In this document: one piece after another, positions 5,522 through 28,165 of the stretch
Layout: the number at the start of each line of letters is the position of its first letter
Numbering within the stretch: position 1 is the stretch's first letter
Source of the DNA: Betaproteobacteria bacterium
GTDB lineage: Bacteria; Pseudomonadota; Gammaproteobacteria; Burkholderiales; Thiobacteraceae
Direction of reading: 5' to 3'
DNA: 56,963 nucleotides
Assembly (NCBI GenBank): GCA_043783305.1
Contig: JAYVZN010000098.1
Location: forward strand, 1-56,963
Notes under the pieces: generated by a model
Told to the model about the DNA's origin: nothing
Database searches by the model: none
The model's input: only the letters and a program-made list of their open reading frames with translations
Made by a program: the position numbers and the translations under genes

Positions 5522-5629
5522 AGCAGTTCCGTCGCGAGGGCATGGAAGGCAGCGCGTTAATCGGTTGCTTTACGTCATACCTCCCGAGTATTCTGCGGCA
5601 CCGACTTTTTGTCGTTACAATCCTGCCCT

Positions 5630-7324
5630 ATGGCTCTACAAATATCGGTTGGTCAAGCAACACACATAGGTAGCCGCGAGGAGAACGAGGACTACGCAGG
5701 CTGCGTGACTCCGGATGCCTCCGTCGCCCAGATCAAAGGCGCGTTGCTGGCCGTGGCCGACGGCGTGGGCGGTGGGGCGGCCGGGCGCGAAGCCTCCGAA
5801 TTCACCGTGCGCGGTGTCTTGTCCGACTACTACGCCACGCCCGATACCTGGGAAGTGCCGTTCGCTCTTGAAAAAATACTAGCTGCGATTAACCGTTGGT
5901 TATTAGCGCAGGGAAGATCGCAGCATGCGCTGGCCGACATGGCCACAACACTCTCCGCGCTCGTGCTGCGCGGCGCGCGTTTTTACACGGCGCATGTTGG
6001 CGATAGCCGGATCTATCGCTTGCGCGGTTCAAATCTACAGCAACTCACGACCGATCATGTTTGGGATCGTCCCGACATGCGCCATGTCTTGAAGCGCGCC
6101 GTGGGTTTAGATCAATTTCTATCCGTCGACTATGCCGATGGTGATTTGGCGGCCGGCGATATTTTTATCCTCGCAACCGACGGCGTGTGGGAACCGCTGG
6201 GCGATAAAATCATGCACGAATTGCTGCTGCTGCATCGCGAACCGCAGCGCGTGGCGGAAGCCCTGGTTGAAAGTGCCGTCAAGCGCAGTGGGCAAGACAA
6301 CGCAACCGTGGTCGTGGTGTCTGTGGAACAAGTGGGTGAAGATTCGTTGCAGGAATTTTTAACCGAAGGTAAAACCCTGCCGCTACCACCGAAATTTAAG
6401 CCCGGCGAGCGCATCGACGATTTCGAAGTGCTGGAACTGCTGCACGATTCCCGTGTCAGCCTGTTGTACAAAGTGCGGCAGATAGCCACCCAGCAAATCC
6501 TGGTATTAAAAACACTGCAACCGATTTTAGCCGATGACACGGCCAGCCAAAGTTGTTTGCTGATGGAAGAGTGGTTGACCAAGCGCGTGATGTCGCACTA
6601 CTTTCCGCAAGCGGTACCGTTGTTGCCCGGAGAGCGTAGTTGCTTGTATTTTGCGATGAGTTTTCACGAAGGCGCGACCCTGCAGCAGCGTCTCGACCAA
6701 GGCCAGCATTTCTCGGTAGCCGATGTGGCGCAAATCGGTATTCGCCTAGCCAAAGGCCTGTCGGCGCTGCACCGCTTGCATGTGATCCATCGCGATATCA
6801 AGCCGGCCAATTTACACGGCGGGGCGGATGGCAAATTGCGCATTCTGGATTTGGGTGTAGCGCTCAACCCCTGGACCGAGTCGGGTGCGCGCGGCAATGC
6901 CGGCACACCCAGTTTTATGGCACCGGAACAATTTACCGGTGCTGCGGCCAACGGTCAGGGTGATATTTACGCCGTCGGTGTGACGCTGTATCACTTACTG
7001 ACGCGCAAATATCCATATGGTGAAATCGAGCCGTTTCAAAATCCGCGTTTCGGCGAGCCGGTACCGCCCACGCGCTATCGTCCGGATATACCGCAGTGGC
7101 TGGAAAATGTCATCCTCAAGGCGGCTGCGCGCGACCGCGAGAAGCGCTTCGAAACGATCGAAGAGCTGTTGCTGGCTTTAGAGCAAGGGGAAATGAAACC
7201 CTTAGCGCCGATGGCGGCAACACCGCTGATCGAACGTTGCACTCCAGTCGTTTGGAAATTTTTGGCGCTGTTATCCTTTCTACTGAATCTGTTGTTGCTA
7301 TACCTGTTGCTGGCCGGGACTTAA
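5630..7324 (+). CDS. Bifunctional PP2C-type Ser/Thr phosphatase / Hanks-type Ser/Thr protein kinase with C-terminal membrane anchor
   Basis: The N-terminus has PP2C motifs (GSREENEDY, LAVADGVGG, ATDGVWE, GQDNATVVVV). The C-terminal half has kinase motifs (VLKTL lysine, HRDIKPANL, DLG, GTPSFMAPE). The protein ends in a hydrophobic helix (FLALLSFLLNLLLLYLLLAG). Confidence 0.8.
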   Translation: MALQISVGQATHIGSREENEDYAGCVTPDASVAQIKGALLAVADGVGGGAAGREASEFTVRGVLSDYYATPDTWEVPFALEKILAAINRWLLAQGRSQHALADMATTLSALVLRGARFYTAHVGDSRIYRLRGSNLQQLTTDHVWDRPDMRHVLKRAVGLDQFLSVDYADGDLAAGDIFILATDGVWEPLGDKIMHELLLLHREPQRVAEALVESAVKRSGQDNATVVVVSVEQVGEDSLQEFLTEGKTLPLPPKFKPGERIDDFEVLELLHDSRVSLLYKVRQIATQQILVLKTLQPILADDTASQSCLLMEEWLTKRVMSHYFPQAVPLLPGERSCLYFAMSFHEGATLQQRLDQGQHFSVADVAQIGIRLAKGLSALHRLHVIHRDIKPANLHGGADGKLRILDLGVALNPWTESGARGNAGTPSFMAPEQFTGAAANGQGDIYAVGVTLYHLLTRKYPYGEIEPFQNPRFGEPVPPTRYRPDIPQWLENVILKAAARDREKRFETIEELLLALEQGEMKPLAPMAATPLIERCTPVVWKFLALLSFLLNLLLLYLLLAGT

Positions 7325-11061: not shown

Positions 11062-11520
11062 CTATTTGTGCAAGCCCTCGACACTTAATACCAGCGAGGC
11101 GCGGTACTTCTGCCAAGTAATCGGGATGACCAAAGAGCGCAGACCATGCGGTAGATAGTCGTCGCCGGGAATGCCCTCGATCACGGTCGGCGGCGAGATC
11201 ACGAGGTCTTGGCCCAATGCGCGCCGCGAGTTGCCGGAGAGCGTGTTGGCGGCTTCACCGACCATATCCGCCATATAGGTTCGGTCCACACGTACCTCGC
11301 CCAGTGTGGCCAACAGGTGACGCAGCATGGCGCTCGGGGCGCTGAAGTAGAGCCGTCCCCGGCACAAGCCGCTGATGCCGATAATACCGGTGTAGTCGAG
11401 TAAATCGTGCTGGATCAATTCAGAGAGATAAGGTGTGCCCACTTCAGCGGGCGCATCCGAGATTGCGGCAAAGTAATCGCGTGCACCATCGACGAAAACT
11501 TGCACCCGTTTTTCATTCAT
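11062..11520 (-). CDS. CheX/CheC-like CheY-P phosphatase (putative)
   Basis: About 152 aa from ATG 11520 (MNEKRVQVFVDGARDYFAAIS...). It is in the CheX size range and overlaps the stop of the upstream single-domain response regulator by a few nt. Confidence 0.45.
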   Translation of the reverse strand: MNEKRVQVFVDGARDYFAAISDAPAEVGTPYLSELIQHDLLDYTGIIGISGLCRGRLYFSAPSAMLRHLLATLGEVRVDRTYMADMVGEAANTLSGNSRRALGQDLVISPPTVIEGIPGDDYLPHGLRSLVIPITWQKYRASLVLSVEGLHK

Positions 11521-11884
11521 GATTGGTTTCTCCGGTAAGTTCGAGTAGTGCGGCACCGATCTGCTCGTCCGAGAACGGCTTGAGCACGAAGCCGTGCGCG
11601 CCGCGCTTGAGTGCTTCGATGGCGGTGGCTTTATCCGCTAGCGCGGAGACAACTAAGATCAGGGTGTTGGGGCGGATCGCCAGTAAAGCCTGAATACAGG
11701 CGATGCCATCCATGCGCGGCATCGTCAGGTCCATCGTCACCACTTCGGCGTGTGATTCACGAAACAGCATCAATGCTTCTTCGCCATCCCGCGCCTGGGC
11801 CACAATGGTAAATTTTCGGGCCGCTGCGCCACGCGCAATCTTGTTGCGGATGACGCTCGAATCGTCAACGATCATCAGCTTCAT
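11513..11884 (-). CDS. CheY-like single-domain response regulator
   Basis: The receiver domain (MKLMIVDDSSVIRNKI..., ...VTMDLTMPRMDGI..., ...KP) has the Asp and Lys signature residues. Its ATG overlaps the stop of the upstream kinase (ATGA). Confidence 0.85.
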   Translation of the reverse strand: MKLMIVDDSSVIRNKIARGAAARKFTIVAQARDGEEALMLFRESHAEVVTMDLTMPRMDGIACIQALLAIRPNTLILVVSALADKATAIEALKRGAHGFVLKPFSDEQIGAALLELTGETNHE

Positions 11885-13995
11885 TGCGTGGCGTATTCAA
11901 CAGTAGGCTTTACATCCGGTAACAGAACGTGGAAGCGGGTCAGTTCGCCGAGCCGGCTGTGCAGGCGGATATGCCCACCCAGCCGTTGCGTAATCGCGTG
12001 CACGGCATCCAGCCCCACACCGCGCCCGGCATCTTCGTCGGCGTTGCTGCGGGTACTAAAACCCGCCCGGAACAACTGCTTGAGCAACTGTTGAGTGTTT
12101 AAGTTTTCGACTTCTGCGGCGGGCATACCGCTTGCGGCAAGCCGTTCACGAATGGCATCCAGTGAGATTCCCGCGCCGTCGTCTTCCACGATTAAGGCGA
12201 AGCCGCCTTCCTGCCGCTGAGTCCAGGCAATGTTGACTAGACCCATACCGGGTTTGTTTTTACCTGCCCGTCGGTCTGGAGTTTCAATGCCGTGCGCGAC
12301 GGCATTACGCACGAATTGCTGCGCTAATTCTTGAATCGCGTGACGGTAGGGCTCAGGTATTGCCGCATCCTCCAGCCCGCGCATCGTTAACTGGACGGAT
12401 TTCCCGCCGCGATTTGCGGCGCGTTGTGCGAGTGTTTTGAGACGGCGCTCTAACGAGAGATCCTCGATTTCGATCAGAGACGTCTGCCGCGGTGTGGCCG
12501 CGCCGCGTAAATGGGTCAAGCGGTTGAGCATTTCTTCGACATTGTCGATCAAGGACAAGAGCCGCTCAATTTGCACTGTTGTGAGGATGAAGTCGTTGCC
12601 GGTAAGCGTTGGCCGTTGCTGCAATTCGGCTAGGCTATCTTCTATTCGATGCGCGTGGCTTTCGATCAGCGATAAGCCGACGGCGCCCGCATCGCCCTTG
12701 ATGCGATGCATGACGCGGTAAATATAGTTGAGCTTGTCGACGAACGCGCGGTTGTCGTGCGCCGGATGGCGCAGAATATCGTTGACTTCGAGTAAGGCCG
12801 TGCGCGTGCGTTGAATCATGTCCGGTAAGTCGAACGGATCCAGCAGTAATAGTTCCGACACCATTTTGACCTGCTGTTCTGCGCGCTCGTTGGCCTGGGC
12901 AAGGTCTTGCTGTAGATGCACCCGTTCGGTCGTGTCTGAAACGGTTACTAGAATATGCGACAGCACACCGGCTTCGAGCACGCGGCGGAAACGAAAATCC
13001 AAGTATTTTGTTACTAAGCCGCCGCTTTGATCTTGAAAGTTCATCTCCACCCGGTTGAGCGGATTTAAGTCCGTGATCAAATGCTGGTTGACGCGATGTT
13101 CGAGCAGCAGCCCGACGTAATCTTTCACCAACTGCATCGTGCGCTCGGAGACATGCGTGCCGAGCAATGCGATAAAATCACGGTGCGCTAAATTTTCGCA
13201 GCGAAATAAGCGCTCCAATTCCTTGGAATACTGCGTGCCGATGTGTAAATCCCGATCCAACAGAAACAGCCCTTCATTTACCGTAGTCAGGATCTGATCG
13301 GTTTCCTGTTTGGCTTCTTCGCGCGCTTGATCGCTACGGCGTAACTGTTTCATGAAATGAAACAGGATGAGAAAGAAGTTGAGGATGGCGAGCACCATGC
13401 CGCCCGCCTGCACCAAGCGCAAAGTTTGCGCCTTGCCCGCAGCGGCTCTTTCCACATGCGTAGTCAGGTCGTTCATCAAATTCAGTAGTTTCAGGTTGCT
13501 TGCGGACGCAGCAGCGACCGCGGCCTGGAGCTTGGCCGGATCGGCATCCGTCAGCGTGGCTTGTACTAAGGCGCGATAGGGTGCCCATACGGCATCGGCT
13601 GTTTTTAAAATTATTTGCCCGGGTCCATCCGCCACGGCGGCTAGGTACAATTGTTCGCCGCCGCCGCCTTTCACCGTGCCGCCCCGGCGAAAGGCCGTAA
13701 GCGTTGTGTCGAACAGCGCAAAGCTTAGTTTTAATTCCTCCATCCGTTCATTAATCGGCTGACCTGTGCGTGCACTCTCTTCCATCTGATACAGCACCTT
13801 AGCCATGCGCTGCGACAACATGCGCTGGCGGCCTGCCAGGTTAACGGAAGCGGCATCGGCCTGGATTTGTGAAGCGATGATGAAGTTCATCACCAGTACC
13901 CCCATATCCACGACCAAAAATAAGGCAACCGCAGCGACGATAGACTGGTATTTGCTTAAGCTGTGTTTAAACATAGGGTAACGATTCAATCCCAA
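11881..13995 (-). CDS. Membrane-bound CheA-like histidine kinase with periplasmic PilJ/NarX-like (nitrate-sensor-type) domain; Hpt + CheA-type ATPase, no CheW-like domain
   Basis: After a signal/TM segment, the N-terminal domain carries the VNLAGRQRMLSQRM motif typical of the PilJ N-terminal / NarX-NIT sensor family. A second TM (VLAILNFFLILF) follows. The cytoplasmic part has an Hpt domain with HRIKGDAGAVGL (compare the canonical Che[12 protein letters not shown] in this window). The ATPase motifs are CheA-like: VRNAVAHGIE, IVEDDGAGI, GRGVGLD. The ORF ends right after the ATPase, with no P5. Confidence 0.7.
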   Translation of the reverse strand: MGLNRYPMFKHSLSKYQSIVAAVALFLVVDMGVLVMNFIIASQIQADAASVNLAGRQRMLSQRMAKVLYQMEESARTGQPINERMEELKLSFALFDTTLTAFRRGGTVKGGGGEQLYLAAVADGPGQIILKTADAVWAPYRALVQATLTDADPAKLQAAVAAASASNLKLLNLMNDLTTHVERAAAGKAQTLRLVQAGGMVLAILNFFLILFHFMKQLRRSDQAREEAKQETDQILTTVNEGLFLLDRDLHIGTQYSKELERLFRCENLAHRDFIALLGTHVSERTMQLVKDYVGLLLEHRVNQHLITDLNPLNRVEMNFQDQSGGLVTKYLDFRFRRVLEAGVLSHILVTVSDTTERVHLQQDLAQANERAEQQVKMVSELLLLDPFDLPDMIQRTRTALLEVNDILRHPAHDNRAFVDKLNYIYRVMHRIKGDAGAVGLSLIESHAHRIEDSLAELQQRPTLTGNDFILTTVQIERLLSLIDNVEEMLNRLTHLRGAATPRQTSLIEIEDLSLERRLKTLAQRAANRGGKSVQLTMRGLEDAAIPEPYRHAIQELAQQFVRNAVAHGIETPDRRAGKNKPGMGLVNIAWTQRQEGGFALIVEDDGAGISLDAIRERLAASGMPAAEVENLNTQQLLKQLFRAGFSTRSNADEDAGRGVGLDAVHAITQRLGGHIRLHSRLGELTRFHVLLPDVKPTVEYATQ

Positions 13996-14028
13996 TCAAA
14001 ATATTTTTCGGCATGCACCGGCTAGGCG

Positions 14029-14829
14029 TTAAGCGGCTGGGCGTAACTGCCGGTGATAAAGGAACTCCAGCACTTGGCTGCGCAGCCGGTGATAGCGTGC
14101 ATCATTGGCTAAAGCCAGCCGGTCGCGCGGGCGCGGCAGGTCTACACTCAAGATATCGCCGATGGTGGCACTCGGCCCATTGGTGAGCATAACAATGCGG
14201 TCGGACAGCAGCACGGCTTCGTCCACGTCGTGCGTCACCATCATCACGGTGCTGTGCGTTTCCTGCGCGATGCGCATTAGTTCATCTTGCAGATGGGCGC
14301 GAGTTAATGCATCCAGTGCGCCGAACGGTTCGTCCAGCAGCAGCACTTTCGGCTGCATCGCCAAGGCGCGTGCAATACCGACGCGCTGCTTCATGCCGCC
14401 GGAAATTTCCTGCGGGCGCTTATGCTCGGCGTGGGTTAAGCCGACTAAGGCCAGGGCATCGCGTGTGCGTTGTTGGAGCTGCGCTTTATTTTCTTTCGCG
14501 CCAAAAACACGCTCCACTGCGAGATAGACATTTTCGTAGCAGGTGAGCCACGGCAGCAGCGAATGGTTTTGAAACACCACGCCGCGCTCCGGACCCGGGC
14601 CATCAATTTCACGCCCGGCGCACAATAAAACCCCGTCGTCTGTTTGCAGTAGGCCCGCCACTAAATTCAGCAGCGTGGATTTACCGCAACCGGAGTGGCC
14701 AATGAGTGTAATAAATTCGCCTTGCGCGACGCTTAAGTTCACATTTTGCAGTGCGACAAACGGCCCGCTTTTGGTGTCGAAGACCATGTTCACATTTTCG
14801 ATCTGCACGTATCTTTCCATTGGAGTCAC
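14029..14829 (-). CDS. nrtD: ABC transporter ATP-binding protein, nitrate/sulfonate/bicarbonate family (NrtD/CmpD-like)
   Basis: Walker A (GHSGCGKST), ABC signature ([15 protein letters not shown]) and Walker B (LLLDEP) are present. It lies in an operon with the NrtA/NrtB homologues. Confidence 0.85.
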
Positions 14830-14847
14830 CTTTGTTTGTATTGGGTT

Positions 14848-16137
14848 TTAGAATTGCAGCTCGGCTTGCAGCCAGAATTTTTTGACATCTTTCGACAAGG
14901 CCTGAGTAGCGTTACGTGTCGCGTTTACCGCGTTGGTGTCGCCGCTATAGTTAGCGTACTTCACAGTGAGCGTGAGGTTTTTTTCGATTTTCTTTGTGGC
15001 CAGAAGATCCCATTCTTTGCCGTAGTTATAGCTTAAGTTATCACTCGAAAAATCATGATAGACCGCCAGCAGGTTGACCCCCCAGCCGGGTGAGCCGCCG
15101 ACGCTGACGAAGGCATCGCGGATACCGTCGCGCGGCGTGGTGAGAAATTTATCCGCCCAGCCGTTGAAGGCGTGCAGCGTCGCGAGCGGGGTGAAGAAGC
15201 CGTAAACGCCGTCGCCGCTCAGCACTTCGTAGTTGAACTTGACCTGCACGCCTTTGTAGTCCGCGCCGAGCATCGCAAACGCGTAGTCGGCATCGACTCG
15301 GGAGGTGCCGTCTTTGTAGCGGCTTTGATTCGCGTATTCGGCGGTGTAGAGCAATTTCCAGCCGTCGAACGGGTGGCCGCCGTCAAAACGCAGACCCAAG
15401 GTTTTATTCGAGTCGGTGACTGGAAAACCACCGTTTTGGCCCGGGTCGTAGTCCAACAAATAACTGTAGCCGACGATTTTTCCGGCCTTAAAGCCACTGT
15501 AGGCGACATTGAATAAATCGCTCTTCATGTGTAGATCGCTCAGCGTCGGATGGTCGGCACCGAAAAAACGATTCACATTGGTGACGTGCGCATAGTTAAT
15601 GGTGGTGGAAGGCAAGGATTTATTTTCCAGCGTGAAGGCATCGTAGGTTTGCTCGTTCTGGCGCCAGCCGACATTGCCGATGAAGCGGTGATTGTCGTAG
15701 GTAATAACTTGACGGCCATACTTGAGCAAGGTGCCCGGGATACCGCTATAGCTCAAGTAAGCTTGATTAATTTCGTTACCGGTGGGGTCGGCCACCACCG
15801 GATATTGGGTGCGGCCATTGTCGGTGCTGTTATAGCGCTCGCTGCCGATGACGCGCACATCCTCGAATTGCAGGAAAGCGCCGAAACCGTGGTACTCGCC
15901 GGTGAGGTAGCCAAGCTGTGTGCGCAAGGTAGAGGCTTCGGCGTTTTTGGCAAATCCTTCTTGGTCGACGCTTTCAAAGCGGTAACGCAAATTCAGCGAA
16001 GGTTTGCCGCCGGTCAGCGCTTCCATGAAATTGTCGCCGCTATAGGCTATCGGCGCGAGACCGGCCAGACAAATCCCGCTGAGTGCTGCTTGCGTCAAGA
16101 TGGAAAGATGTTTTTGTTTTACACGTTGCGTATTCAT
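14848..16137 (-). CDS. Outer-membrane beta-barrel porin embedded in the nitrate ABC operon (putative anion-selective channel)
   Basis: Signal peptide (LSILTQAALSGICLAGLAPIAYSG), alternating amphipathic strands, and a C-terminal aromatic residue (...WLQAELQF). It sits between the nrtB and nrtD homologues with gaps of 15-18 nt. Confidence 0.55.
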   Translation of the reverse strand: MNTQRVKQKHLSILTQAALSGICLAGLAPIAYSGDNFMEALTGGKPSLNLRYRFESVDQEGFAKNAEASTLRTQLGYLTGEYHGFGAFLQFEDVRVIGSERYNSTDNGRTQYPVVADPTGNEINQAYLSYSGIPGTLLKYGRQVITYDNHRFIGNVGWRQNEQTYDAFTLENKSLPSTTINYAHVTNVNRFFGADHPTLSDLHMKSDLFNVAYSGFKAGKIVGYSYLLDYDPGQNGGFPVTDSNKTLGLRFDGGHPFDGWKLLYTAEYANQSRYKDGTSRVDADYAFAMLGADYKGVQVKFNYEVLSGDGVYGFFTPLATLHAFNGWADKFLTTPRDGIRDAFVSVGGSPGWGVNLLAVYHDFSSDNLSYNYGKEWDLLATKKIEKNLTLTVKYANYSGDTNAVNATRNATQALSKDVKKFWLQAELQF

Positions 16138-16152
16138 TTAAAGCTCCCTTGG

Positions 16153-17031
16153 TTATTCGTAGTTAAAGCGTTTGGCCAGCAGTAATAGCCCATTTTCCAA
16201 CAGCAATCCAATAATACCAACGACAAAGATGGCGATGATGATGTGTGCCACATTCAAATTATTCCATTCGTCCCAAACCCAGAAACCGATGCCGACACCG
16301 CCAGTAAGCATTTCTGCGGCAACGATCACCAGCCAGGCGACACCGATGGAAAGCCGGATGCCGGTCATCAAATAAGGGAGTACTGCCGGGAATAAAATTT
16401 TGGTGAAAATTTTCCATTCGGAGAGCTTAAGCACTTTGGCCACATTCAGATAGTCCTGCGGTACGCGCGCAACACCGTCGGCAGTATTGATAATAATAGG
16501 CCAAATACTGGAAATAAAGATAACCCAGATACCGGCCGGGTTTGCGGCCTTGAAGACGAGCAGGCCGATGGGCAACCACACCAACGGCGAGACGGGCCGC
16601 AGCAGGCTGATAATAGGTGAAGTCATGCGATTGAAAAAAGTGAAGCGCCCGATCATGAAGCCCAGTGGAATGCCGATCAACGCCGCCATGCCGAAGCCGA
16701 TGCCGACGCGCTGTAGCGAGTTGAGCACATTCCAGCCGATGCCTTTATCGTTCGGCCCTTTATCGTAGAACGGGTCACTGAATAATTGCAGCGCAGACTC
16801 CCAAGTTTTAACCGGCCCGGGCAAGTTGGGGCTATGTTGCGCAATCACGGCCCACAAGCCGAGAAATAAAATAAAACCCAGGAGCGGTGGAACAATATGT
16901 TGCAGCATCGACCAGGATTTGCCTTTTATGCGCGGCGCGATGGCAGGCGCGGTTGCGACGGGCGGGCTGGCCTGCGGTGCGTTGACTTCAACCACGCTCA
17001 GCGCGGGTTTGATGGCGGCTACAGTGCTCAT
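16153..17031 (-). CDS. nrtB: ABC transporter permease (NrtB/CmpB-like)
   Basis: Binding-protein-dependent transport inner-membrane component with the EAA-like loop (GIRLSIGVAWLVIVAAEM). Confidence 0.85.
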   Translation of the reverse strand: MSTVAAIKPALSVVEVNAPQASPPVATAPAIAPRIKGKSWSMLQHIVPPLLGFILFLGLWAVIAQHSPNLPGPVKTWESALQLFSDPFYDKGPNDKGIGWNVLNSLQRVGIGFGMAALIGIPLGFMIGRFTFFNRMTSPIISLLRPVSPLVWLPIGLLVFKAANPAGIWVIFISSIWPIIINTADGVARVPQDYLNVAKVLKLSEWKIFTKILFPAVLPYLMTGIRLSIGVAWLVIVAAEMLTGGVGIGFWVWDEWNNLNVAHIIIAIFVVGIIGLLLENGLLLLAKRFNYE

Positions 17032-17054
17032 GATGTGCTCCTTGATAAAAATAA

Positions 17055-18329
17055 TTAAACCTTGATCTTGAAACCGTCGGCGTAACTCTTCGGATTTTTT
17101 GCATCCCAGGTCACGCCGTCGATCAGCTTGGCGCTACGCATCGGATCTTTGGGCACGGGTACTTTGACTTGTGCGGCGGCTTGTTTGTAGAGCTCGATCT
17201 GGTTTACTTTTTGGGCGACGGCCAAGTAATCCGGATGCGCTTTCAACAAGCCCCAACGTTTGTGCTGCGTGAGAAACCACATACCGTCGGAGAGGTAGGG
17301 AAAATTCACCGCGCCGTCGTTATAAAATTTCATGTAGTTCGGATCCTGCCATTTCTTACCGATACCGTTGTCGTACTGGCCGAGCATGCGGTCTTCCACC
17401 ACATCGAACGGGGCGTTGACATAAGCCTTATCCGCGATAATTTTGGCGACTTCGGAGCGATTGCTAAGCGTGTCGATGTATTTCGACGCCTCCAATACCG
17501 CCATCATCAGAGCGCGTGTGGTGTGGGGATATTTCGCGACAAATTCTGCGGTCGTGCCCAGTACTTTTTCCGGATGATCCTTCCAGATATCCTGCGTGGT
17601 CACGGCGGTGAAACCGATCTTGTCGGCAATGGCGCGCGCATTCCACGGCTCGCCGACGCAGTAGCCATCCATATTGCCGACGCGCATATTGGCCACCATC
17701 TGCGGTGGCGGCACGGTGATGGTCTTGACTTCGCTAAACGGATTGACCCCCTGCGCGGCCAGCCAATAGTAGAGCCACATCGCGTGGGTGCCGGTGGGGA
17801 AGGTTTGTGCGAAGGTGTATTCGCGCGGCTCTTTCTTGATGAGCGCAGCCAAGCTGGCACCGTCCTTTACACCTTTGTCGTGGAGCTGCTTGGAGAGCGT
17901 GATGGCTTGGCCATTATTGTTCAGCGTCATCAGCACGGACATATCTTTCTTCGGTCCGCCGATACCCAATTGCACACCGTAAAGCAAGCCGTAGAGCACG
18001 TGCGCTGCATCCAACTCGCCATTCACTAATTTATCCCGCACCCCGGCCCAGGAGGCCTCCTTGCTGGGCGTGATTTTAATGCCGTATTTTTTATCGAAGC
18101 CCAGTACCGAGGCGATGACGACCGAAGCGCAATCGGTTAATGGAATGAAACCGATTTTAACTTCAGATTTTTCCGGTGCGTCGGAGCCGGCCGCCCAAGC
18201 AGCGTTGCGGATCGCGTCCGGTACAAAACTCATGATGCCCGCCGCACCGGCTAGTGCGGTGCTTTTCTTTATAAAATCGCGGCGCGGTGTATTGATCGTG
18301 GTGGCATCGGGTGTGCGTTTATCTTTCAT
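17055..18329 (-). CDS. nrtA: Nitrate ABC transporter substrate-binding protein with twin-arginine signal (NrtA/NasF-like)
   Basis: Tat signal (PRRDFIKKSTALAGAAGIMSF), NMT1/NrtA-type periplasmic binding fold, and AGGAGA RBS ahead of ATG 18329. Confidence 0.85.
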   Translation of the reverse strand: MKDKRTPDATTINTPRRDFIKKSTALAGAAGIMSFVPDAIRNAAWAAGSDAPEKSEVKIGFIPLTDCASVVIASVLGFDKKYGIKITPSKEASWAGVRDKLVNGELDAAHVLYGLLYGVQLGIGGPKKDMSVLMTLNNNGQAITLSKQLHDKGVKDGASLAALIKKEPREYTFAQTFPTGTHAMWLYYWLAAQGVNPFSEVKTITVPPPQMVANMRVGNMDGYCVGEPWNARAIADKIGFTAVTTQDIWKDHPEKVLGTTAEFVAKYPHTTRALMMAVLEASKYIDTLSNRSEVAKIIADKAYVNAPFDVVEDRMLGQYDNGIGKKWQDPNYMKFYNDGAVNFPYLSDGMWFLTQHKRWGLLKAHPDYLAVAQKVNQIELYKQAAAQVKVPVPKDPMRSAKLIDGVTWDAKNPKSYADGFKIKV

Positions 18330-18357
18330 CGTGCTCTCCTTAAGTCAATTTTCAGCC

Positions 18358-18409
18358 AAAAAAAAGCGCCCATCCCTGGCAAAGCAAAGCTTGCCGTAGG
18401 AATGGACGC
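18358..18409 (-). terminator. Intrinsic terminator in the nrtA leader (attenuator)
   Basis: In the minus-strand RNA, the 5' arm GCGUCCAUUCC (plus 18399-18409) pairs with GGGAUGGGCGC (plus 18366-18376) over 11 bp including two G-U pairs. It is followed by U8 (plus A8 18358-18365), about 30 nt before the nrtA start. Confidence 0.5.
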
Positions 18410-18465
18410 CGTTGTCCGTTTTAGTAGTGCAACTTTGCACTACCGTACCACCCGCCGTTGGGTGG
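18404..18465 (-). promoter_or_regulatory. ANTAR-type dual hexaloop RNA hairpins in the nrtA leader (NasT antitermination target)
   Basis: RNA hairpin 1 is CCACCC-AACGGC-GGGUGG (plus 18448-18465). RNA hairpin 3 is GGAC-AACGGC-GUCC (plus 18404-18417). Both have the identical hexaloop AACGGC (A at position 1, G at position 4, as in ANTAR targets). Hairpin 3's 3' arm overlaps the terminator's 5' arm. A third hairpin, GUAGUGC-AAAGUU-GCACUAC (plus 18424-18443), lies between them. Confidence 0.5.
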
Positions 18466-18481
18466 CTTTCAATGATTACAC

Positions 18482-18497
18482 AGCACGTACCGTGCCA
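18482..18497 (-). promoter_or_regulatory. sigma54 -24/-12 promoter candidate for the nrtA operon
   Basis: The minus strand reads TGGCACGGTACGTGCT (perfect TGGCAC at -24, GC at -12, GG-N10-GC spacing). It lies 20 nt downstream of the nasT stop and about 15 nt upstream of the first leader hairpin. Confidence 0.45.
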
Positions 18498-18516
18498 ATT
18501 TTTTATTACGCGCGTT

Positions 18517-19134
18517 TTAGGTGAAAGCCTGCGCCATCTCGACAATTTGCGCCGCGATGTCGGCGAGCTTGGCATTGCGTTGCATCGCCATCTTACGCAT
18601 TAAGTTATAAGCCGCGTCTTCACTCACTTTCTTTTGCTGCATCACGATGCCTTTCGCACGCTCAATTAACTTACGCTCGGCAAGCTGATTTTGTGCAAGG
18701 CTTAAATCTTGTCGCAGCGCTTGATGTTCCTCAAAGCGCAGCATGGCGACTTGTAAAATCGGTTTAATGCGCTCCGGCGCAGTCCCTTTTACAACATACG
18801 AAGTGACCCCGGCGCGCATCGCCTGCTTCATTCGAGAGACATCATCGTCATCGGTAAAAAGCACGATGGGGCGTGGTTGATCGCGGCTAATCATGCACAC
18901 ATGCTCGAGCGTGTCGCGATCCGGCGCATCGGTATCGATGACGATCACATCCGGGTCCAATTGCGGCAAGCTATTTAACAAGTCGAGCGAGATCGACGCG
19001 CGTTGCAGTACCAAGTAATCGCTGGTTTGTAAGCTTTGGGCCAATAGAGCGCGCCGCTCAGGATTAGCGTCAACGATTAATACGCGCAATGGCGATGCAA
19101 TGGGAGAGGTCATATCCATACTTATAGCAACCAA
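18517..19134 (-). CDS. nasT: ANTAR-domain response regulator (NasT/AmiR-like nitrate-assimilation antiterminator)
   Basis: Receiver domain (LRVLIVDANPERRALL..., ...DVIVIDTDAPD...) plus a C-terminal ANTAR domain (LAERKLIERAKGIVMQQKKVSEDAAYNLMRKMAMQRNAKLADIA). Confidence 0.85.
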   Translation of the reverse strand: MVAISMDMTSPIASPLRVLIVDANPERRALLAQSLQTSDYLVLQRASISLDLLNSLPQLDPDVIVIDTDAPDRDTLEHVCMISRDQPRPIVLFTDDDDVSRMKQAMRAGVTSYVVKGTAPERIKPILQVAMLRFEEHQALRQDLSLAQNQLAERKLIERAKGIVMQQKKVSEDAAYNLMRKMAMQRNAKLADIAAQIVEMAQAFT

Positions 19135-19264: not shown

Positions 19265-19600
19265 TTAGCGCTCCAACTTTTTACCAAGAAGATAAGCATC
19301 GACCATGCCGAACAGCCAGCACAGGGCGAGCACCCACGTGGCGGCATTCAGTATTTTATCGTCGGCGGTGGCTTGTAGTGTGACCGCGACTAGATGCTGT
19401 ATATCGAGTCCGCTACCCTCGGCTAAACTTTTTTCGATGACCCGGCGGGCTTGCTGCATTACTTGAAATAGCAAGAGGGTGAGGCTGATTAAACTAATTG
19501 CGATTAACGCGATGCCGCGCTGAAACGATTTGAGCAGGAGGTGGCCCGCCCCCGGAAAAATAACGGCGGACCACAGCAGCGCTTGGATGGATTTACGCAT
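19265..19600 (-). CDS. Small integral membrane protein (3 TM), unknown function
   Basis: 111 aa with hydrophobic segments AVIFPGAGHLLL, IALIAISLISLTLLLF and WVLALCWLFGMV. It lies 3 nt from the upstream Cache-like ORF. Confidence 0.4.
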   Translation of the reverse strand: MRKSIQALLWSAVIFPGAGHLLLKSFQRGIALIAISLISLTLLLFQVMQQARRVIEKSLAEGSGLDIQHLVAVTLQATADDKILNAATWVLALCWLFGMVDAYLLGKKLER

Positions 19601-19603
19601 GCG

Positions 19604-20539
19604 CTAGAACCAAAACGCGGTGTCCTTCAAGAGAAACTCGTCATACGGCATATAGTGCGAGCCGTCACAAGAGAACGTCAGGCTGATCATACCGTTAAAA
19701 ATATTGATCGAGGCGGTACGCAGATAAAAAGTCGGATCGGTGAGGCGTAAGGCTTGCAGCGTGGTGAGAATCGGCTGGATTTTATTCTCGGGAATGGTCG
19801 CATCGTGTGGATAGGAGCGCGCCGGAAACACCAAACAGATATCCGGGTCGCTCAAGGCTTCGTGATCCAAAATACGGTAGCGGTAAGGATCATCAATCGT
19901 CCACAGCGTCGCTTGGCTACTGGAAAAGTGGATCTGACATTGAAACACGCCGCGATTCGTCAGTAACTCTTCCAAGATGGATAAGGCCTGTGCAATATTG
20001 CCGTCCAAGGGACTATCGACCCGACATTGTTGAAACACCGCGCCGCGAATCGCCGGGTCGCCTTTCACCTGGCGCCAGTTACCGGGTTCTTCGTACAACT
20101 CCGCCGTAACCGGCAGATCACGCAAGTCGAAATCGGCGCCGAGATAGCCCAGGGTGTTGCCATCCGCGCGCACAACTTGCAGTGCGGTGAGCGAAGGCCG
20201 GTGATTAAGAATACTGATATACGCATCGGATAACAAAAACCCCCAGGCTGGAACCGCTTCCATCATGTAGGGACGGTTTGAACGATCACGTCCAAAGTGG
20301 CCGGGTATGACGCCGCTCGCGCCAATGTTGTCGCAAATTTGAACACCATCGGTGCCGACGCAGTACAGAAAAGCACTATGCGGTATATCGGCGAAGCCCT
20401 GCATCAGTACAGCTTCCAGTTGCGCACGATCATGCCAAACCGGCGGGCAACGCTCGGCCAACTGCGCTAACGGTTCGCGCAGTTGCCGCGCTAACTGTTC
20501 GCGCTGTAGATAAATACTTTCCTTCCAAGAAGTTTTCAT
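19604..20539 (-). CDS. Cytoplasmic Cache/PAS-like sensor-domain protein with uncharacterised C-terminal domain
   Basis: There is no signal peptide or TM. Residues about 40-190 resemble single-Cache domains (CVGTDGVQICD..., RSNRPYMMEAV..., DGNTLGYLGADFDLRDL). The C-terminal about 130 aa has no recognisable motif. Confidence 0.4.
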   Translation of the reverse strand: MKTSWKESIYLQREQLARQLREPLAQLAERCPPVWHDRAQLEAVLMQGFADIPHSAFLYCVGTDGVQICDNIGASGVIPGHFGRDRSNRPYMMEAVPAWGFLLSDAYISILNHRPSLTALQVVRADGNTLGYLGADFDLRDLPVTAELYEEPGNWRQVKGDPAIRGAVFQQCRVDSPLDGNIAQALSILEELLTNRGVFQCQIHFSSSQATLWTIDDPYRYRILDHEALSDPDICLVFPARSYPHDATIPENKIQPILTTLQALRLTDPTFYLRTASINIFNGMISLTFSCDGSHYMPYDEFLLKDTAFWF

Positions 20540-20807: not shown

Positions 20808-21119
20808 ATGACTTCGAGCATTACCAATCATATCGGCGATCATAAAGCCACATTAACCATTAACGGGCGCTTTGATTTTTCCATTCATCGCGATTTTCGC
20901 GCAAACTACGAGGAAATCTTAGGCAGCCATGCGGTGAGCGAAATTGCGGTCGATTTGAAGAGTGTCGAATACGTTGATAGCTCGGCGCTCGGCATGCTAT
21001 TGCTATTGCGTGAAAAATCAATGGCGGAGAATATCAAGATGCGGCTTATTAATCCAACGCTTGCCGTGCGCCAAGTGTTGGAAATTGCAAATTTTGAAAA
21101 GTTATTCAGTATTACATAA
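20808..21119 (+). CDS. STAS-domain anti-sigma-factor antagonist (SpoIIAA/RsbV/HsbA-like)
   Basis: 103 aa with the STAS pattern (VDLKSVEYVDSSALGMLLLLREK); the conserved phosphorylatable Ser lies in DSSALG. Confidence 0.8.
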   Translation: MTSSITNHIGDHKATLTINGRFDFSIHRDFRANYEEILGSHAVSEIAVDLKSVEYVDSSALGMLLLLREKSMAENIKMRLINPTLAVRQVLEIANFEKLFSIT

Positions 21120-24277: not shown

Positions 24278-26659
24278 GTGGTGCGCTACTTTCATCGACA
24301 CCTCTGGAAAAAACGGAGTTTAATTGTCCGCCTGCTTATTCTGTCCAGCGTATTGTTCGTTCTGGGCGGCAGCTTTTTATTGCACCGGATGATCGAGCAG
24401 GTCGTGGACAATCGGCGCGTTACCTTGTTGGAAAACTTACAAGGCGAAACGCGGGATATAGCCAATAGTCTGGTGGAGTACGCCGTCACCGGCGACTATG
24501 CAAGTATTCAACAAGTGTTGATTAAGCGCGCCAAGCGCCGCGATATCCATTCGGTAGAATGGACGGACACAGCGGGAAGAGTCATTCGTGCCGATAACAA
24601 CGTGCTGTCGGTACAAGCACCCGCTTGGTTCATTCGCTGGATCAATATTCCAGCATTTTATGTTACCACCGCCGTTACCGTCGGCGGCAGCGCTTACGGC
24701 AACGTATTGCTGACACCGACGCATGTCCCCTCGATAAATTTTTTATGGCAGACGTTTAAGCAACAGGTGCTTATTCTCCTACTGAGCGTAGCGGTGTTTT
24801 ACAGCGTGATGATTTTATTTTTATGGTACGAGTTACGCCCGCTTCAGGCTTTGGTGAAGGGCACGATACGATTCGGCGAAGGCGATCATTCGATCCGTAT
24901 CAAACCTGCCAGCGCGCCTGAAATCAGCGCCAGTGTCGCGGCATTTAATCGCATGGCGGATATGATTCAAAAATTACTGGTATCGACCCAGGAAAAAGAA
25001 AATCATCTGCACGCCGTCATGAACAGCATCGATGATGCAATTATCATCATGGATGAGCGGCATGTTATCGAATCATTCAATCACGCCATGCCGCGATTGT
25101 TTGCTAATTTACCGGATGAATTATCCGGGCGGCCATTGATGTCGCTATTGGAAGGCGCGTGGGAAGAAAAAACTAATCGATCAGAGGACGCTTACTCGGG
25201 ATTGGAAACGGAAACCCGTGGGCGGCGCGGTGACGGCGCCTCGTTTCCGATTAACCTCAGAATTAAACCGCTGCAATCACAAGGGCGCTCGTTATTCATG
25301 GCGAACGTCCAAGATATTAGTAAACGCCGCAAGGCCGAGGCGCTGCTGGCGCAGGGTCGGGAGCGGCTCGAAATCTATCAGGCCACAACGGAGCAGGAGT
25401 TGCGGCTGGCGCACCATGTGTTCCAAACCATCACCAGTGAAAGTGCTAGAAAACCGGCCCCGCTGGAACTTTGGACGGAGCCGATGGGCCTGTTCAACGG
25501 CGATTTATTGCTGCATGAATTCAGTCCTTCCGGTGAGCTGCGTGTCATGTTGTGCGATTTCATGGGGCATGGCTTGGGTGCTGCAATCGGCGCGATTCCC
25601 GTTTCGGATGTTTTTCTCGGCATGAGCCGGAAAGGCTATGGAATTCCCGATATCGCCAGCGAAATTAATAACAAGTTAAAACGCATATTGCCGACCGGGC
25701 ATTTTTGCGCCGCCTGTTTGATCAGCATTAATCAAGACGAACGCGGTTTGGAAATTTGGAATGGCGGTTTACCGCCCGTCCTGATTATGGACGAAAATAA
25801 AAAAGTTATGCGGCGTGTGTTGTCGAGCAAATTGCCGCTGGGGATTGCATCTCCCGGCGAATTTGATGCGCGCACGGAAATATTTTCCGCGCAAGGCGTA
25901 CATTCGGCGTTTATTTACAGCGATGGCTTGATCGAAACGCGCAATGCGCAAGGCGAAATGCTCGGGCAAGCGACCTTGGAGAAGATGATCGAAACGGAAT
26001 CGGGCGCCGGGTCCTGGCTGGACAGCGTCAAGGCGCAGATAGTTAATTTTTTCGGAGATTGTGCGTTAGGCGATGATCTGTCGCTGCTGCATATCTATTG
26101 CGACACCGCTCATGCCGTACCCGAGATTGTTGCTGAGCGCTGCCCTGAAACGGGTGTTAACAACGAATCGGCACACGGCAGTTGGCGCGTCGAATTTCAA
26201 TTGAGTGGTGAGATGATTAAAAATTGCACGCCCATACCGCTGCTCATGAGCTGGCTAATGGGCTTGAATTTTACGGAGCTCCAGCGCTCGCACATTTACA
26301 CCATCTTGTCCGAGTTGATTAATAATTCCATCGATCATGGATTGTTGAAGATGGATTCCGGGCTTAAATCCACGCCGGACGGTTTTGAAAGTTATTATGC
26401 GACGCGCCAGCATCTCTTAGATGCGCTTAACGAGGGAATGCTCACGGTACAGTTAAGCCTGAAGCAAGGTAGCCATAAAAAAACCATCCAGATTGCGGTT
26501 AAAGATACCGGCAGCGGATTTAATTTCAGCCAAGTTTTTTCGCGGCTGGACGGCAACAATAAAAATTTCGGGCGCGGCCTCGCCTTGGTGAATTCCTTAA
26601 GCAGCAAACTGCACTATATCGGCTGCGGCAATAGCGTCATGGTGGAGTACACCGAATAA
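24278..26659 (+). CDS. Membrane sensor TM-periplasmic loop-TM-HAMP-PAS-PP2C(SpoIIE/RsbU-type phosphatase)-HATPase(RsbW-type anti-sigma kinase) fusion protein
   Basis: GTG start. TM1 is LILSSVLFVLGGSFLL and TM2 is LILLLSVAVFYSVMILFLWY, followed by a HAMP domain. The PAS region is LHAVMNSIDDAIIIMDERHVIESFN. The SpoIIE/PP2C region has the motifs FNGDLLLHEF, VMLCDFMGHGLGAAIGAIPV and IYSDGLIETRN. The C-terminal GHKL kinase of the RsbW/SpoIIAB type has ILSELINNSIDHGLL, VKDTGSGFNF and GRGLALVNSLSS. Confidence 0.8.
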   Translation: MVRYFHRHLWKKRSLIVRLLILSSVLFVLGGSFLLHRMIEQVVDNRRVTLLENLQGETRDIANSLVEYAVTGDYASIQQVLIKRAKRRDIHSVEWTDTAGRVIRADNNVLSVQAPAWFIRWINIPAFYVTTAVTVGGSAYGNVLLTPTHVPSINFLWQTFKQQVLILLLSVAVFYSVMILFLWYELRPLQALVKGTIRFGEGDHSIRIKPASAPEISASVAAFNRMADMIQKLLVSTQEKENHLHAVMNSIDDAIIIMDERHVIESFNHAMPRLFANLPDELSGRPLMSLLEGAWEEKTNRSEDAYSGLETETRGRRGDGASFPINLRIKPLQSQGRSLFMANVQDISKRRKAEALLAQGRERLEIYQATTEQELRLAHHVFQTITSESARKPAPLELWTEPMGLFNGDLLLHEFSPSGELRVMLCDFMGHGLGAAIGAIPVSDVFLGMSRKGYGIPDIASEINNKLKRILPTGHFCAACLISINQDERGLEIWNGGLPPVLIMDENKKVMRRVLSSKLPLGIASPGEFDARTEIFSAQGVHSAFIYSDGLIETRNAQGEMLGQATLEKMIETESGAGSWLDSVKAQIVNFFGDCALGDDLSLLHIYCDTAHAVPEIVAERCPETGVNNESAHGSWRVEFQLSGEMIKNCTPIPLLMSWLMGLNFTELQRSHIYTILSELINNSIDHGLLKMDSGLKSTPDGFESYYATRQHLLDALNEGMLTVQLSLKQGSHKKTIQIAVKDTGSGFNFSQVFSRLDGNNKNFGRGLALVNSLSSKLHYIGCGNSVMVEYTE

Positions 26660-26935
26660 CCCACATAATTAGCATGGATATCCCATTGTATTTCATGAGA
26701 AATATCTGTTTTTTTGTTGAAAAACCATGCAGATATCGGTGCATGACCGTGCTATCCGCAACCCCGCATTATTTCCGCAACATATTTTTCATAATTCACT
26801 CAAGTTGGCTTTTCTAAAGTCGCTACCTAATTGGCAAGTCAGCGCGACGAATTGTTTCGTTTGGAAAATGCATCGCGGACTGACGGTTTACACGTTAGAG
26901 CCACAAGGGAAAATTACTTAGCCTCTATAGAAGCC

Positions 26936-28165
26936 ATGAAGCACAACAGACCACAGATGATTATTCTCGCAACGGGTATCGGCACAATCGCCTTGACCGG
27001 TTTGGCGGCATGGCTCATGGGTGCGCATTGGCAAGCCAGTGCGGGTGTTTATGCGATGTTCGCTCTAAGCCTTGCTGCGGTTATCGCCGTCGCTTATTTT
27101 CAGATCGTTAAAATACAAACCACATCGAACGATGAAGTGATTCACTCCCCGCCGGATATGAATGAGGTTAGACAGCAAGTAGATCATTTGCTGCATGGTT
27201 TAAAGCAAAGTTTTAATCTACAGCATACGCAGGCGAACGACGAATTAGAGCAGGTGCGCACAATAATTGCCGATGCCGGAGAAAAACTGGTGGCGAGCTT
27301 TACCAGCTTAGAATCGCATACGCGGGCGCAACAAGCGCTGGCCCTTAATTTGACCGGAGCACCGCAGGATAAAACGCCTTGCGAAGCGGTCGATTTTGAA
27401 GCATTCATCGCCGAGATTTCCAAAATGCTGATTGTCTTCGTCGAAACCACGATAGACACCAGTCGCGTCGGGATGGGGCTGGTGGGCATGATGGACGACA
27501 TCACCGCGCGCGTGAATACGATCATCGGCGTACTCAATGAAATTGAGTCCATCGCCAAACAAACTAACCTGCTGGCGCTCAATGCGGCCATCGAAGCCGC
27601 ACGCGCCGGTGAGGCGGGGCGCGGCTTTGCGGTAGTGGCGGATGAGGTGCGTGCCTTGTCGACGCGTTCCAGCCTGTTTTCCAGCCAAATACGCGAGTAC
27701 ATGGGGCAGATGCATCGCTCGGTGATTGAAGCCGAGCAGTCGATCAACGGCATGGCTTCGAAAGATATGCGCTTCGCACTCGATTCTAAATTACGTGTGG
27801 AAAGTATGTTGGGCAGTGTGCGCGCAATCAATCGGCAAATGGTCATGACGGTGGATCAACTCACCGACATCGCCAAGGAAGTGGAAAGCGAAGTGCGGGT
27901 AACGGTGACCTCGCTGCAATTTCAGGATTTAGCAACGCAATTGGTCACGCGCGTCGGGGATCGCATCGGCGCGATGTCCGGTGCCTTAAATGAAATCGAA
28001 CAGATTCAGATTCAGCACACGCCGACAGCCATTCAAGATTTACCGGCGTTAAGTCGATATTTAAAACAGTACGACACGGTTCTGGAGAAAGCGAATGCAG
28101 GGCCGATGGGTAAAGGTCCGGTCTCACAGCACCAAATGTCCGCGGGCGAAGTAGATTTGTTTTGA
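26936..28165 (+). CDS. Methyl-accepting chemotaxis protein with two closely spaced TM helices and no periplasmic sensor domain
   Basis: MCP signalling tip [37 protein letters not shown]. The first in-frame ATG is at 26936; the ORF-track start at 26831 is a TTG, so the start is uncertain. Confidence 0.75.

Follow-up and report, generated by a model that had tools for sequence, protein, structure and literature searches.

The 56,963-nucleotide contig JAYVZN010000098.1 of a Betaproteobacteria bacterium (Thiobacteraceae, assembly GCA_043783305.1), referred to here in its full length as the window, carries a nitrate ATP-binding cassette (ABC) transport operon that runs directly into genes for a membrane-bound histidine kinase, a CheY-like response regulator (RR) and a CheX-family phosphatase. 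The kinase joins a PilJ-type periplasmic sensor to the phosphotransfer and ATPase domains of CheA, and by sequence the three-gene module is a two-component system put together from components of chemotaxis. In textbooks CheA stands for a kinase that is unable to sense by itself and depends on arrays of methyl-accepting chemotaxis proteins (MCPs) and CheW. We consider it probable that the three genes at the end of the operon specify a self-contained, array-independent phosphorelay that would respond to nitrate and be co-expressed with the importer.

Nine features lie in a row on the minus strand between 11062 and 19134, in the order nasT, leader, nrtA, nrtB, porin, nrtD, kinase, RR and cheX. 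A preliminary description of this DNA had given the same order at the same positions, and it is confirmed by Pfam and NCBIfam scans that back each gene assignment. An identical kinase is encoded on contigs from several metagenome samples, whose gene order agrees over the length that each contig covers, so the arrangement is not an assembly artefact. The source databases hold no names for the window's proteins, and database labels of the kinase relatives are automatic and inconsistent. No description of a sensor-fused CheA-type kinase lacking P3 and P5, of a kinase-CheY-CheX triad, or of their placement in nrt operons was found in the open-access full-text literature, which agrees with the earlier impression that the arrangement is undescribed. 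The kinase family is apparently large, widespread and unstudied.

Architecture of the sensor-fused kinase

The kinase gene (11881–13995, minus strand) encodes a sensor-fused CheA-type histidine kinase of 704 aa as called. Pfam recognises PilJ (residues 41–157), Hpt (391–462) and HATPase_c (555–694) in this protein and nothing else. An AlphaFold2 model built on 27 homologues, with a mean predicted local distance difference test score (pLDDT) of 81, arranges the chain as a first transmembrane helix (TM1), a periplasmic four-helix bundle, a second transmembrane helix (TM2), a PAS-like domain, a coiled coil, the Hpt domain, a disordered linker (500–512) and an alpha/beta ATPase domain (515–692). 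The layout proposed earlier, in which a PilJ/NarX-type sensor and a transmembrane segment precede a CheA-type Hpt and ATPase with no P5, is borne out by Pfam, by family profiles, by the AlphaFold2 model and by Foldseek. That account was right about P5 and incomplete elsewhere, as the PAS-like domain and the lack of P2 and P3 have to be added to it. The quoted motifs VNLAGRQRMLSQ, HRIKG and GEAANT are all present in the sequence.

The sensor occupies residues 41–190 (13426–13875, minus strand) and matches PF13675 with an E-value of 4.9e-12 and 46.4 bits against a cut-off of 26.6. This predicted periplasmic four-helix bundle is flanked by TM1 (residues ~17–39) and TM2 (~195–217), both in the sequence and in the AlphaFold2 model. 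Residues 51–62 (13810–13845) form the N-box VNLAGRQRMLSQ, an exact fit to the pattern [IVL]-[ND]-x-A-G-x-Q-R-M-L-[ST]-Q, and none of the N-box residues varies among 27 homologues. Martín-Mora et al. defined the N-box from the nitrate-bound structure of the McpN ligand-binding domain (LBD), in order to tell nitrate-binding PilJ domains apart; in McpN, R61 hydrogen-bonds nitrate, and N-box PilJ domains also occur in sensor kinases generally (PMC6381276). The N-box of the kinase includes the Arg equivalent to R61, and the family profile matches the McpN-LBD structure 6GCV with an E-value of 6.7e-5 over 45 residues. By analogy with McpN, we infer that the sensor binds periplasmic nitrate. The sensor had also been likened to the NIT domain; this was rejected, as NIT is a different family from PilJ and PF08376 gives no Pfam match at E ≤ 0.01, so that the PilJ half of the assignment stands, with an N-box of the McpN type, and the NIT half does not.

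On the cytoplasmic side of the membrane, residues 241–354 (12934–13275, minus strand) are predicted to form a PAS-like domain, which is followed by a coiled coil at residues 356–384. In the AlphaFold2 model this region has five strands in a beta-beta-alpha(n)-beta-beta-beta order, with a pLDDT of ~75–86, and Foldseek returns long alignments to LOV/PAS-histidine kinase chimeras. Residues 241–354 have no Pfam match, and the PAS-like assignment is drawn from the model.

The Hpt domain is a four-helix bundle of the CheA P1 type and spans residues 390–499 (12499–12828, minus strand; Pfam Hpt 31.7 bits against a cut-off of 24.6). Its predicted phospho-acceptor, His430 (codon 12706–12708), lies in the sequence HRIKGDAG on the second helix, and H430, K433 and G434 are invariant across the family alignment. 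The family profile matches the CheA P1 structures 1TQG and 2LD6 at 1e-9. The ATP-binding catalytic domain of the CheA P4 type follows at residues 515–692 (11920–12453, minus strand) and was identified by profile comparison and Foldseek. Against CheA P4 structures the family profile reaches an E-value of ~1e-42, compared with ~1e-5 for ordinary histidine kinases, which match only in the G2/lid region of the last ~60 residues. Foldseek places the C-terminal domain on Thermotoga maritima P4 with a TM-score of 0.85 and a root-mean-square deviation of 2.2–2.5 Å. Residues of the N, G1, F and G2 boxes do not vary across the kinase family. Similarity of P1 and P4 to CheA lies orders of magnitude above similarity to HisKA-type kinases, which supports an array-independent phosphorelay built on a CheA-type core. 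An ordinary HisKA-type kinase was looked for as an alternative and rejected: the protein has no HisKA or HAMP match, and histidine kinase structures align with it only over that terminal stretch.

The kinase lacks P2, P3 and P5, with no match to PF02895 (H-kinase_dim) or PF01584 (CheW). Its C-terminus lies ~10 residues past P4, and residues 515–529 form a single helix that belongs to P4 in the AlphaFold2 model, with no P3 hairpin. The canonical CheA of the window (28606–30720), encoded 15 kb away and by coincidence also 704 aa long, scores for both domains in the same type of scan (H-kinase_dim 2.9e-21, CheW 1.6e-28); their absence from the kinase is therefore real and not a problem of sensitivity. 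The two proteins share 28% identity over P4. NCBIfam CheA models reach 95–119 bits on the kinase against cut-offs of 793–950. Full CheA membership was rejected on account of these equivalog scores, which are far under the cut-offs, and of the absent P3 and P5. As the kinase fails these two defining features of CheA, it is not to be filed as CheA.

Signalling partners, transport genes and leader

The single-domain CheY-like regulator and the dedicated CheX reported earlier are both present behind the kinase. The RR gene (11513–11884, minus strand) encodes 123 aa (Response_reg 6e-25), and cheX (11062–11556, minus strand) encodes a CheY-P phosphatase of the CheX family (PF13690 6.8e-16, 58.6 bits against a cut-off of 27). 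The phosphorylation pocket of the RR is complete, with D7, D8, D52, S80 and K102 invariant in 50 orthologues, and the catalytic E101-x-x-N104 of CheX is invariant in 49 orthologues. Among solved structures the RR comes closest to T. maritima CheY (4.5e-21), archaeal CheY and Borrelia CheY3, all from organisms with phosphatases of the CheX/CheC type. NCBIfam CheY equivalogs match the RR below their cut-offs, at 49 bits against 189 and 70.8 against 200.

The transport genes upstream of the kinase are all on the minus strand. nrtA (17055–18329) encodes a periplasmic nitrate-binding protein (NMT1_2 6e-107, 357 bits) whose twin-arginine translocation signal scores above the TIGR01409 cut-off. The permease of the nitrate ABC transporter is encoded by nrtB (16153–17031; TIGR01183 250 bits against a cut-off of 209) and its ATPase by nrtD (14029–14829; TIGR01184 350.8 bits against a cut-off of 291.8). 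The porin gene between them (14848–16137) encodes an outer-membrane beta-barrel channel of the Alginate_exp (AlgE-like) family (PF13372 2.1e-12), for which there is no NCBIfam model.

Gaps of 15–33 nt or overlapping codons had been described throughout the row, and the tight packing holds: nrtA and nrtB are 23 nt apart, nrtB and the porin 15 nt, and the porin and nrtD 18–27 nt, and the kinase stop and RR start share a 4-nt ATGA. The figure needs revision between nrtD and the kinase. All homologues of the kinase begin at Met8 and public gene calls give 697 aa, so its true start is probably ATG 13974, which would yield the 697-aa product and a gap of 54 nt instead of 33. For CheX the true start is most likely ATG 11520, which has a GGAG Shine-Dalgarno sequence and would give 152 aa; with this start cheX shares 8 nt with the RR gene. 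In keeping with the single transcript proposed earlier, a terminator was looked for in the sequence between nrtD and the kinase gene and none was found. The gap is free of terminator-like and promoter-like sites and of stable structure, which makes a single transcript reaching from the nrtA leader to cheX likely in this genome.

The operon is preceded by nasT (18517–19134, minus strand), whose product, an RNA-binding antiterminator, has a receiver at its N-terminus and an ANTAR domain (Pfam ANTAR 5.3e-19, Response_reg 4.2e-15), and by the 187-nt nrtA leader (18330–18516, minus strand). Targets of ANTAR regulators consist of two hexaloop stem-loops, with A at position 1 and G at position 4 of the loop, the second of which competes with an intrinsic terminator. 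The nrtA leader has this layout, and the claim that a NasT-type antitermination leader precedes nrtA is upheld by its two hexaloops and terminator. Two hairpins 49 nt apart (18447–18466 and 18404–18417) bear identical AACGGC hexaloops, and the second extends into the 5' arm of the terminator, which has a 12-bp stem (arms 18398–18409 and 18366–18377) and a T-run of eight (18358–18365). The leader folds at -66.9 kcal/mol (z = -4.7 against shuffled sequences) with the terminator formed in the minimum free energy structure, and hairpins with AACGGC-type hexaloops occur only four times in the whole window, both strands included. Rfam weakly matches the leader, below threshold, to narK RNA and to P11, and P11-like matches or similar hexaloop hairpins are also found just upstream of nrtA in Thiobacillus, a Burkholderiaceae metagenome-assembled genome (MAG), Ramlibacter and Polaromonas. 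P11 is NalA, the leader bound by NasT in Pseudomonas (PMC11387622).

Several other features touch on NasT and the leader. No NasS-like NrtA paralogue is encoded anywhere in the 57-kb window. Two same-strand open reading frames (ORFs) lie directly upstream of nasT (19265–20539, minus strand), one of 311 aa (19604–20539) and one for a 111-aa membrane protein (19265–19600), and neither has a Pfam match. The 311-aa ORF has a Cache/PDC-like look and could bear on NasT control, no nasS being present. In a Methylotenera MAG (L029, 840–1175), the porin and kinase genes are separated by a 335-nt spacer with a strong hairpin right after the porin stop and the hexaloops AACGGC and AACGAC. An ANTAR-type leader directly upstream of the kinase was considered at this locus and rejected, its hexaloop hairpins being ~130 nt apart and not convincing.

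Elsewhere in the window, a canonical chemosensory cluster (26831–35816, plus strand) encodes an MCP, CheY (28193–28558), the CheA described above, CheW, a four-helix-bundle MCP, CheR, CheD and CheB. Just upstream of it lies the gene for a 793-aa protein (24278–26659, plus strand) with a periplasmic LapD_MoxY_N domain, HAMP, PAS, SpoIIE (PP2C) and HATPase_c_2. A STAS-domain protein is encoded nearby (20808–21119, plus strand), and the pair looks like a partner-switching module. A fused PP2C phosphatase and Ser/Thr protein kinase is encoded by a 571-aa ORF (564 aa as called) at 5609–7324 (plus strand), adjoining DUF924 and major facilitator superfamily genes.

Distribution and gene neighbourhoods of the family

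A word-indexed search returned 381 relatives of the kinase, nearly all of ~700 aa and with the same three Pfam domains. An exhaustive HMMER search with kinase residues 8–500, in which P4 was left out, gave, at E ≤ 1e-30, 678 family representatives after clustering at 50% identity; among the 150 best of these 678, nearly every one is full-length. Betaproteobacterial carriers include Polaromonas, Rhodoferax, Ramlibacter, Thiobacillus, Methylophilaceae, Rhodocyclaceae and Chitinivorax. Among the gammaproteobacteria the family is found in Cellvibrio, Zhongshania, Marinagarivorans, Steroidobacteraceae, Arenicella, Moraxellaceae, Competibacteraceae and others, and Verrucomicrobiota also carry the kinase-RR-CheX module. 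Among the species representatives of the genome collection, no kinase exceeds 42% identity to that of the window.

Some relatives depart from the usual length. Kinases of 820–875 aa (P0140, P0143, P0145 and others) align from about residue 180 on, with two matched stretches each, and this sub-family probably carries a tandem PilJ sensor. The predicted protein P0253, of 4858 aa, has 25 separate matches to kinase residues 215–452 (PAS-like domain, coiled coil and Hpt) and is either a giant repeat protein or an oddity of assembly or gene calling.

Gene neighbourhoods were surveyed at 52 loci with a full-length kinase, on one-genome-per-species contigs from ~50 species, by clustering all ORFs within 9 kb of the kinase. 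The RR stands behind the kinase in 50 of the 52 loci and CheX is present in 49. The next commonest neighbours are NrtD (10 loci), NrtB (9) and NrtA (9), so nitrate transport genes adjoin the kinase in nine or ten loci, or ~20%, and they do so in at least five different arrangements, those of Comamonadaceae, Thiobacillus, Arenicella, Spongiibacteraceae and the window's own clade. Apart from the RR, CheX and the nrt genes, no gene recurs across lineages. No MCP, CheW, CheR or CheB gene is conserved near the kinase in these loci, and no flagellar or pilus genes are linked to it.

The arrangements differ between lineages. Comamonadaceae have nasT-nrtABD-kinase, Arenicella nrtABD-kinase and Methylophilaceae porin-kinase, a Spongiibacteraceae MAG has the nrt genes and porin on the opposite strand, and in Thiobacillus the order is nasT-kinase-RR-cheX-[leader]-nrtABD. 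Transport had been described as hard-wired to the phosphorelay. The survey of the nrt-kinase linkage upholds this as a recurrent pattern and not as a universal one: judged from these loci, the hard-wiring is a recurrent, lineage-specific arrangement and not a defining property, because the module stands alone in ~80% of them.

Within the window's own clade, whose kinases are 67–70% identical, the linkage is kept and the transporter differs. One of these loci (L085, 4349–9839; kinase 70% identical) has another nrt-type ABC system upstream, with an NrtA-like protein (31% identity), an NrtB-like protein and a 583-aa fused double ATPase. Directly upstream of its kinase is a 381-aa NrtA paralogue (64% identity) that has no signal peptide and is possibly a NasS-like protein. 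Behind cheX, this locus encodes a 143-aa Trans_reg_C protein. Another locus, L087, has the linkage without the porin.

The same operon slot can also hold a different output. A metagenome contig (L088, 1–4366; ENA ERZ27313595 k141_836927) encodes a porin and an NrtD that are each 84% identical to those of the window, followed 25 nt after nrtD by an 808-aa protein in which the N-box PilJ sensor and PAS module are fused to GGDEF-EAL and not to Hpt-P4. Its sensor-PAS module shares 66% identity with kinase residues 7–378 and is orthologous to it. The same sample contains a 559-aa PilJ-GGDEF paralogue (P0069). At a further locus (L056, 5131–6213), the gene after nrtD and before a porin homologue (69% identity) encodes a 360-aa protein with the N-box INLAGRQRMLSQ, two transmembrane helices and a ~130-aa C-terminal tail of no recognised type. 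This operon runs nasT-nrtA-nrtB-nrtD-sensor-porin, and globin-like and Rieske (NirD-like) genes come next. Since the GGDEF-EAL protein and the tailed protein share an N-box sensor within an nrt operon, such a sensor inside a nitrate ABC operon is, on the strength of these sequences, a recurrent design with exchangeable output.

The outer-membrane porin gene inside the ABC operon had been singled out as atypical. It is present as described, and it is not a one-off, as it recurs in relatives: porin homologues adjoin nrt genes, the sensor gene or both at five loci (L013, L029, L037, L056 and L088). This recurrence suggests a dedicated outer-membrane route for nitrate.

Proposed phosphorelay and known systems

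In the array-independent phosphorelay that we favour, nitrate in the periplasm would bind at the dimer interface of the N-box PilJ bundle, as suggested by the exact motif identity with McpN. The signal would pass through TM2, the PAS-like domain and the coiled coil, and alter the P4-type phosphorylation of His430 on the tethered Hpt domain. Since the kinase has neither P5 nor P3, an MCP array and CheW would not be needed, and dimerisation would presumably occur through the sensor, the transmembrane helices, the PAS-like domain and the coiled coil. The phosphoryl group would then be transferred to Asp52 of the adjacent RR, and the adjacent CheX would dephosphorylate the RR quickly, so that the level of phospho-RR would track current nitrate. 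With the whole nrtA-nrtB-porin-nrtD-kinase-RR-cheX unit lying behind the NasT/ANTAR leader, these proteins would probably be made only upon induction of nitrate assimilation. The phospho-RR presumably works by protein-protein contact. The best guess at its target is one in motility or surface lifestyle, given that the RR is CheY-like, that the phosphatase is a CheX, and that a sibling genome encodes a cyclic di-GMP enzyme with the same sensor in the same operon slot. As there is no methylation-based adaptation, the system would report the absolute nitrate level, as in a kinesis or lifestyle switch, and not serve temporal-gradient chemotaxis.

Several observations weigh against this reading. 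The nitrate specificity of the N-box was demonstrated on chemoreceptor LBDs and not on this kinase family, and the PAS-like domain may bring in a second input. In about 80% of the loci the kinase has no nrt gene within 10 kb, and no output gene recurs across lineages within 9 kb of the kinase in the 52 loci. The nrtD-kinase gap in other lineages is 80–470 nt, which leaves room for a separate promoter, and in Thiobacillus the kinase module precedes the nrtA leader, so control by NasT does not hold generally. The Rfam matches of the leader itself, to narK RNA (29.4 bits, E 0.021) and to P11/NalA, are weak and below gathering thresholds.

The rival that survives best is true nitrate taxis, in which the phospho-RR would bind the flagellar switch (FliM/FliN) like CheY and the kinase would be an array-independent input parallel to the canonical Che cluster. 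The closest solved relatives of the RR are flagellar CheYs of the type that uses CheX/CheC, CheX is a dedicated family of CheY-P phosphatases, and a canonical chemotaxis cluster is present in the window. The N-box PilJ sensor of McpN is moreover established in nitrate chemotaxis (PMC6381276). Nevertheless, the module has neither CheR/CheB targets nor methylation helices, and hence no adaptation by which concentrations at successive times could be compared. Identity between the RR and the CheY of the window's own Che cluster is only 34%, and flagellar genes are linked to the module in none of the 52 loci. The module is also found in MAGs assigned to Moraxella/Moraxellaceae and to Arenicella, groups that are generally non-flagellated. 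We therefore regard nitrate taxis as unlikely. The flagellar or nitrate-taxis output offered in the preliminary description finds no support, as methylation and adaptation components are lacking and no conserved output gene lies nearby.

A second rival is that the adjacency to nrtD is incidental, the module being an independently transcribed two-component system whose ligand is not, or not only, nitrate. Most family members are not beside nrt genes, and the gaps between nrtD and the kinase elsewhere are long enough for promoters. Against this, the N-box match is exact and invariant, and the N-box was defined to separate nitrate-binding PilJ domains from others. The nrt linkage occurs in at least five arrangements and is kept when the transporter type or the output domain differs. 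With one nrt locus per genome of several Mb, the chance of the two lying within 10 kb of each other is well under 1% per genome. In the window itself the 54-nt gap contains no promoter-like or terminator-like site. Incidental adjacency is accordingly judged very improbable.

Slightly less credible still, and hardly to be expected, is that the kinase regulates its own operon by phosphorylating NasT in place of NasS, with the RR and CheX as a phosphate sink: the window has no NasS-like NrtA paralogue, the NasT receiver keeps the equivalents of the phospho-acceptor D57, T87 and K109, and nasT is directly upstream of the kinase in Thiobacillus, but in NasT an Ala takes the place of the Mg-binding D13, as in a pseudo-receiver, the conserved partners of the kinase are the RR and CheX, with NasT absent from the vicinity of some 40 loci, NasS could be encoded elsewhere in the genome, and characterised NasT is controlled by NasS binding and not by phosphorylation (PMC3795266, PMC11387622).

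Returning to the array-independent phosphorelay, a bolder extension of it can be put forward tentatively and with some doubt. The module may represent an unrecognised class of pathway, in which an array-free CheA core fused to a transmembrane receptor, with a private CheY and CheX and made together with the importer, would drive methylation-independent behaviour towards nitrate through a flagellar or pilus motor or through attachment. If so, behaviour would change only while the cell is equipped for nitrate uptake, and the GGDEF-EAL swap in the sibling would point to the 'transporter-embedded nitrate sensor' as a general design in which behavioural outputs can be interchanged.

The system is of wider interest for the study of CheA. 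A natural P1–P4 core joined to a transmembrane ligand sensor, with no P3 or P5, would show another mode in which this core is controlled, and the kinase offers a simple one-polypeptide system for CheA-type catalysis and regulation. Its parts are small and soluble or easily truncated, which makes the predictions directly testable. The carriers include environmentally important Beta- and Gammaproteobacteria (Comamonadaceae, Thiobacillus, Methylophilaceae, Cellvibrio and Steroidobacteraceae). As the module links nitrate uptake to a fast signalling branch that is reset by a phosphatase, the gene arrangement suggests that these lineages adjust their behaviour or lifestyle to the nitrate in the periplasm while they assimilate it.

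Compared with the CheA proteins of E. coli, T. maritima and the window's own Che cluster, the kinase has the same P1-type Hpt domain with its HxxKG histidine, the same P4-type ATPase, and a CheY-like single-domain RR and a CheY-P phosphatase as partners. Unlike CheA, it lacks P2, the P3 hairpin and the P5/CheW domain and is not associated with CheW, MCP, CheR or CheB. It is itself a transmembrane receptor with periplasmic ligand-binding and PAS-like domains. McpN of Pseudomonas aeruginosa (PA2788, PDB 6GCV) has a sensor of the same Pfam family, an identical N-box and the same topology of TM1, four-helix bundle and TM2, with low sequence similarity outside the N-box helix. McpN is however a methyl-accepting chemoreceptor that acts via CheW/CheA arrays with methylation adaptation, whereas here the sensor is fused to the kinase core.

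The nitrate/nitrite sensors NarX and NarQ resemble the present kinase in spanning the membrane, in having a periplasmic four-helix bundle from one and the same Pfam/InterPro family with a conserved Arg in the P-box/N-box helix, and, by prediction, in acting as two-component nitrate sensors. NarX and NarQ contain HAMP, S-helix, GAF-like, dimerisation and histidine phosphotransfer (DHp; HisKA_3) and catalytic (CA) domains and signal to the DNA-binding regulators NarL and NarP. The kinase instead has PAS-like, Hpt and P4 domains, no HAMP or HisKA match, and a stand-alone receiver as its partner. A survey of ~6000 nitrate-sensing histidine kinases took only DHp-containing architectures (PMC8199190), so the present family fell outside its scope.

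The upstream part of the operon resembles the NasS-NasT and NasR systems (NalA/P11 leader), in which an ANTAR regulator acts with a dual-hexaloop leader that competes with a terminator ahead of nitrate-assimilation transport genes. It differs from them in having no nasS beside nasT and in the addition of an outer-membrane channel and three signalling genes to the operon. The downstream pair resembles the CheX-CheY systems of Borrelia, Treponema and Thermotoga, as a CheX with the ExxN motif is encoded beside a CheY of the T. maritima type. In those bacteria the two proteins belong to full MCP-CheW-CheA flagellar pathways, whereas here they accompany a sensor-fused kinase in proteobacteria.

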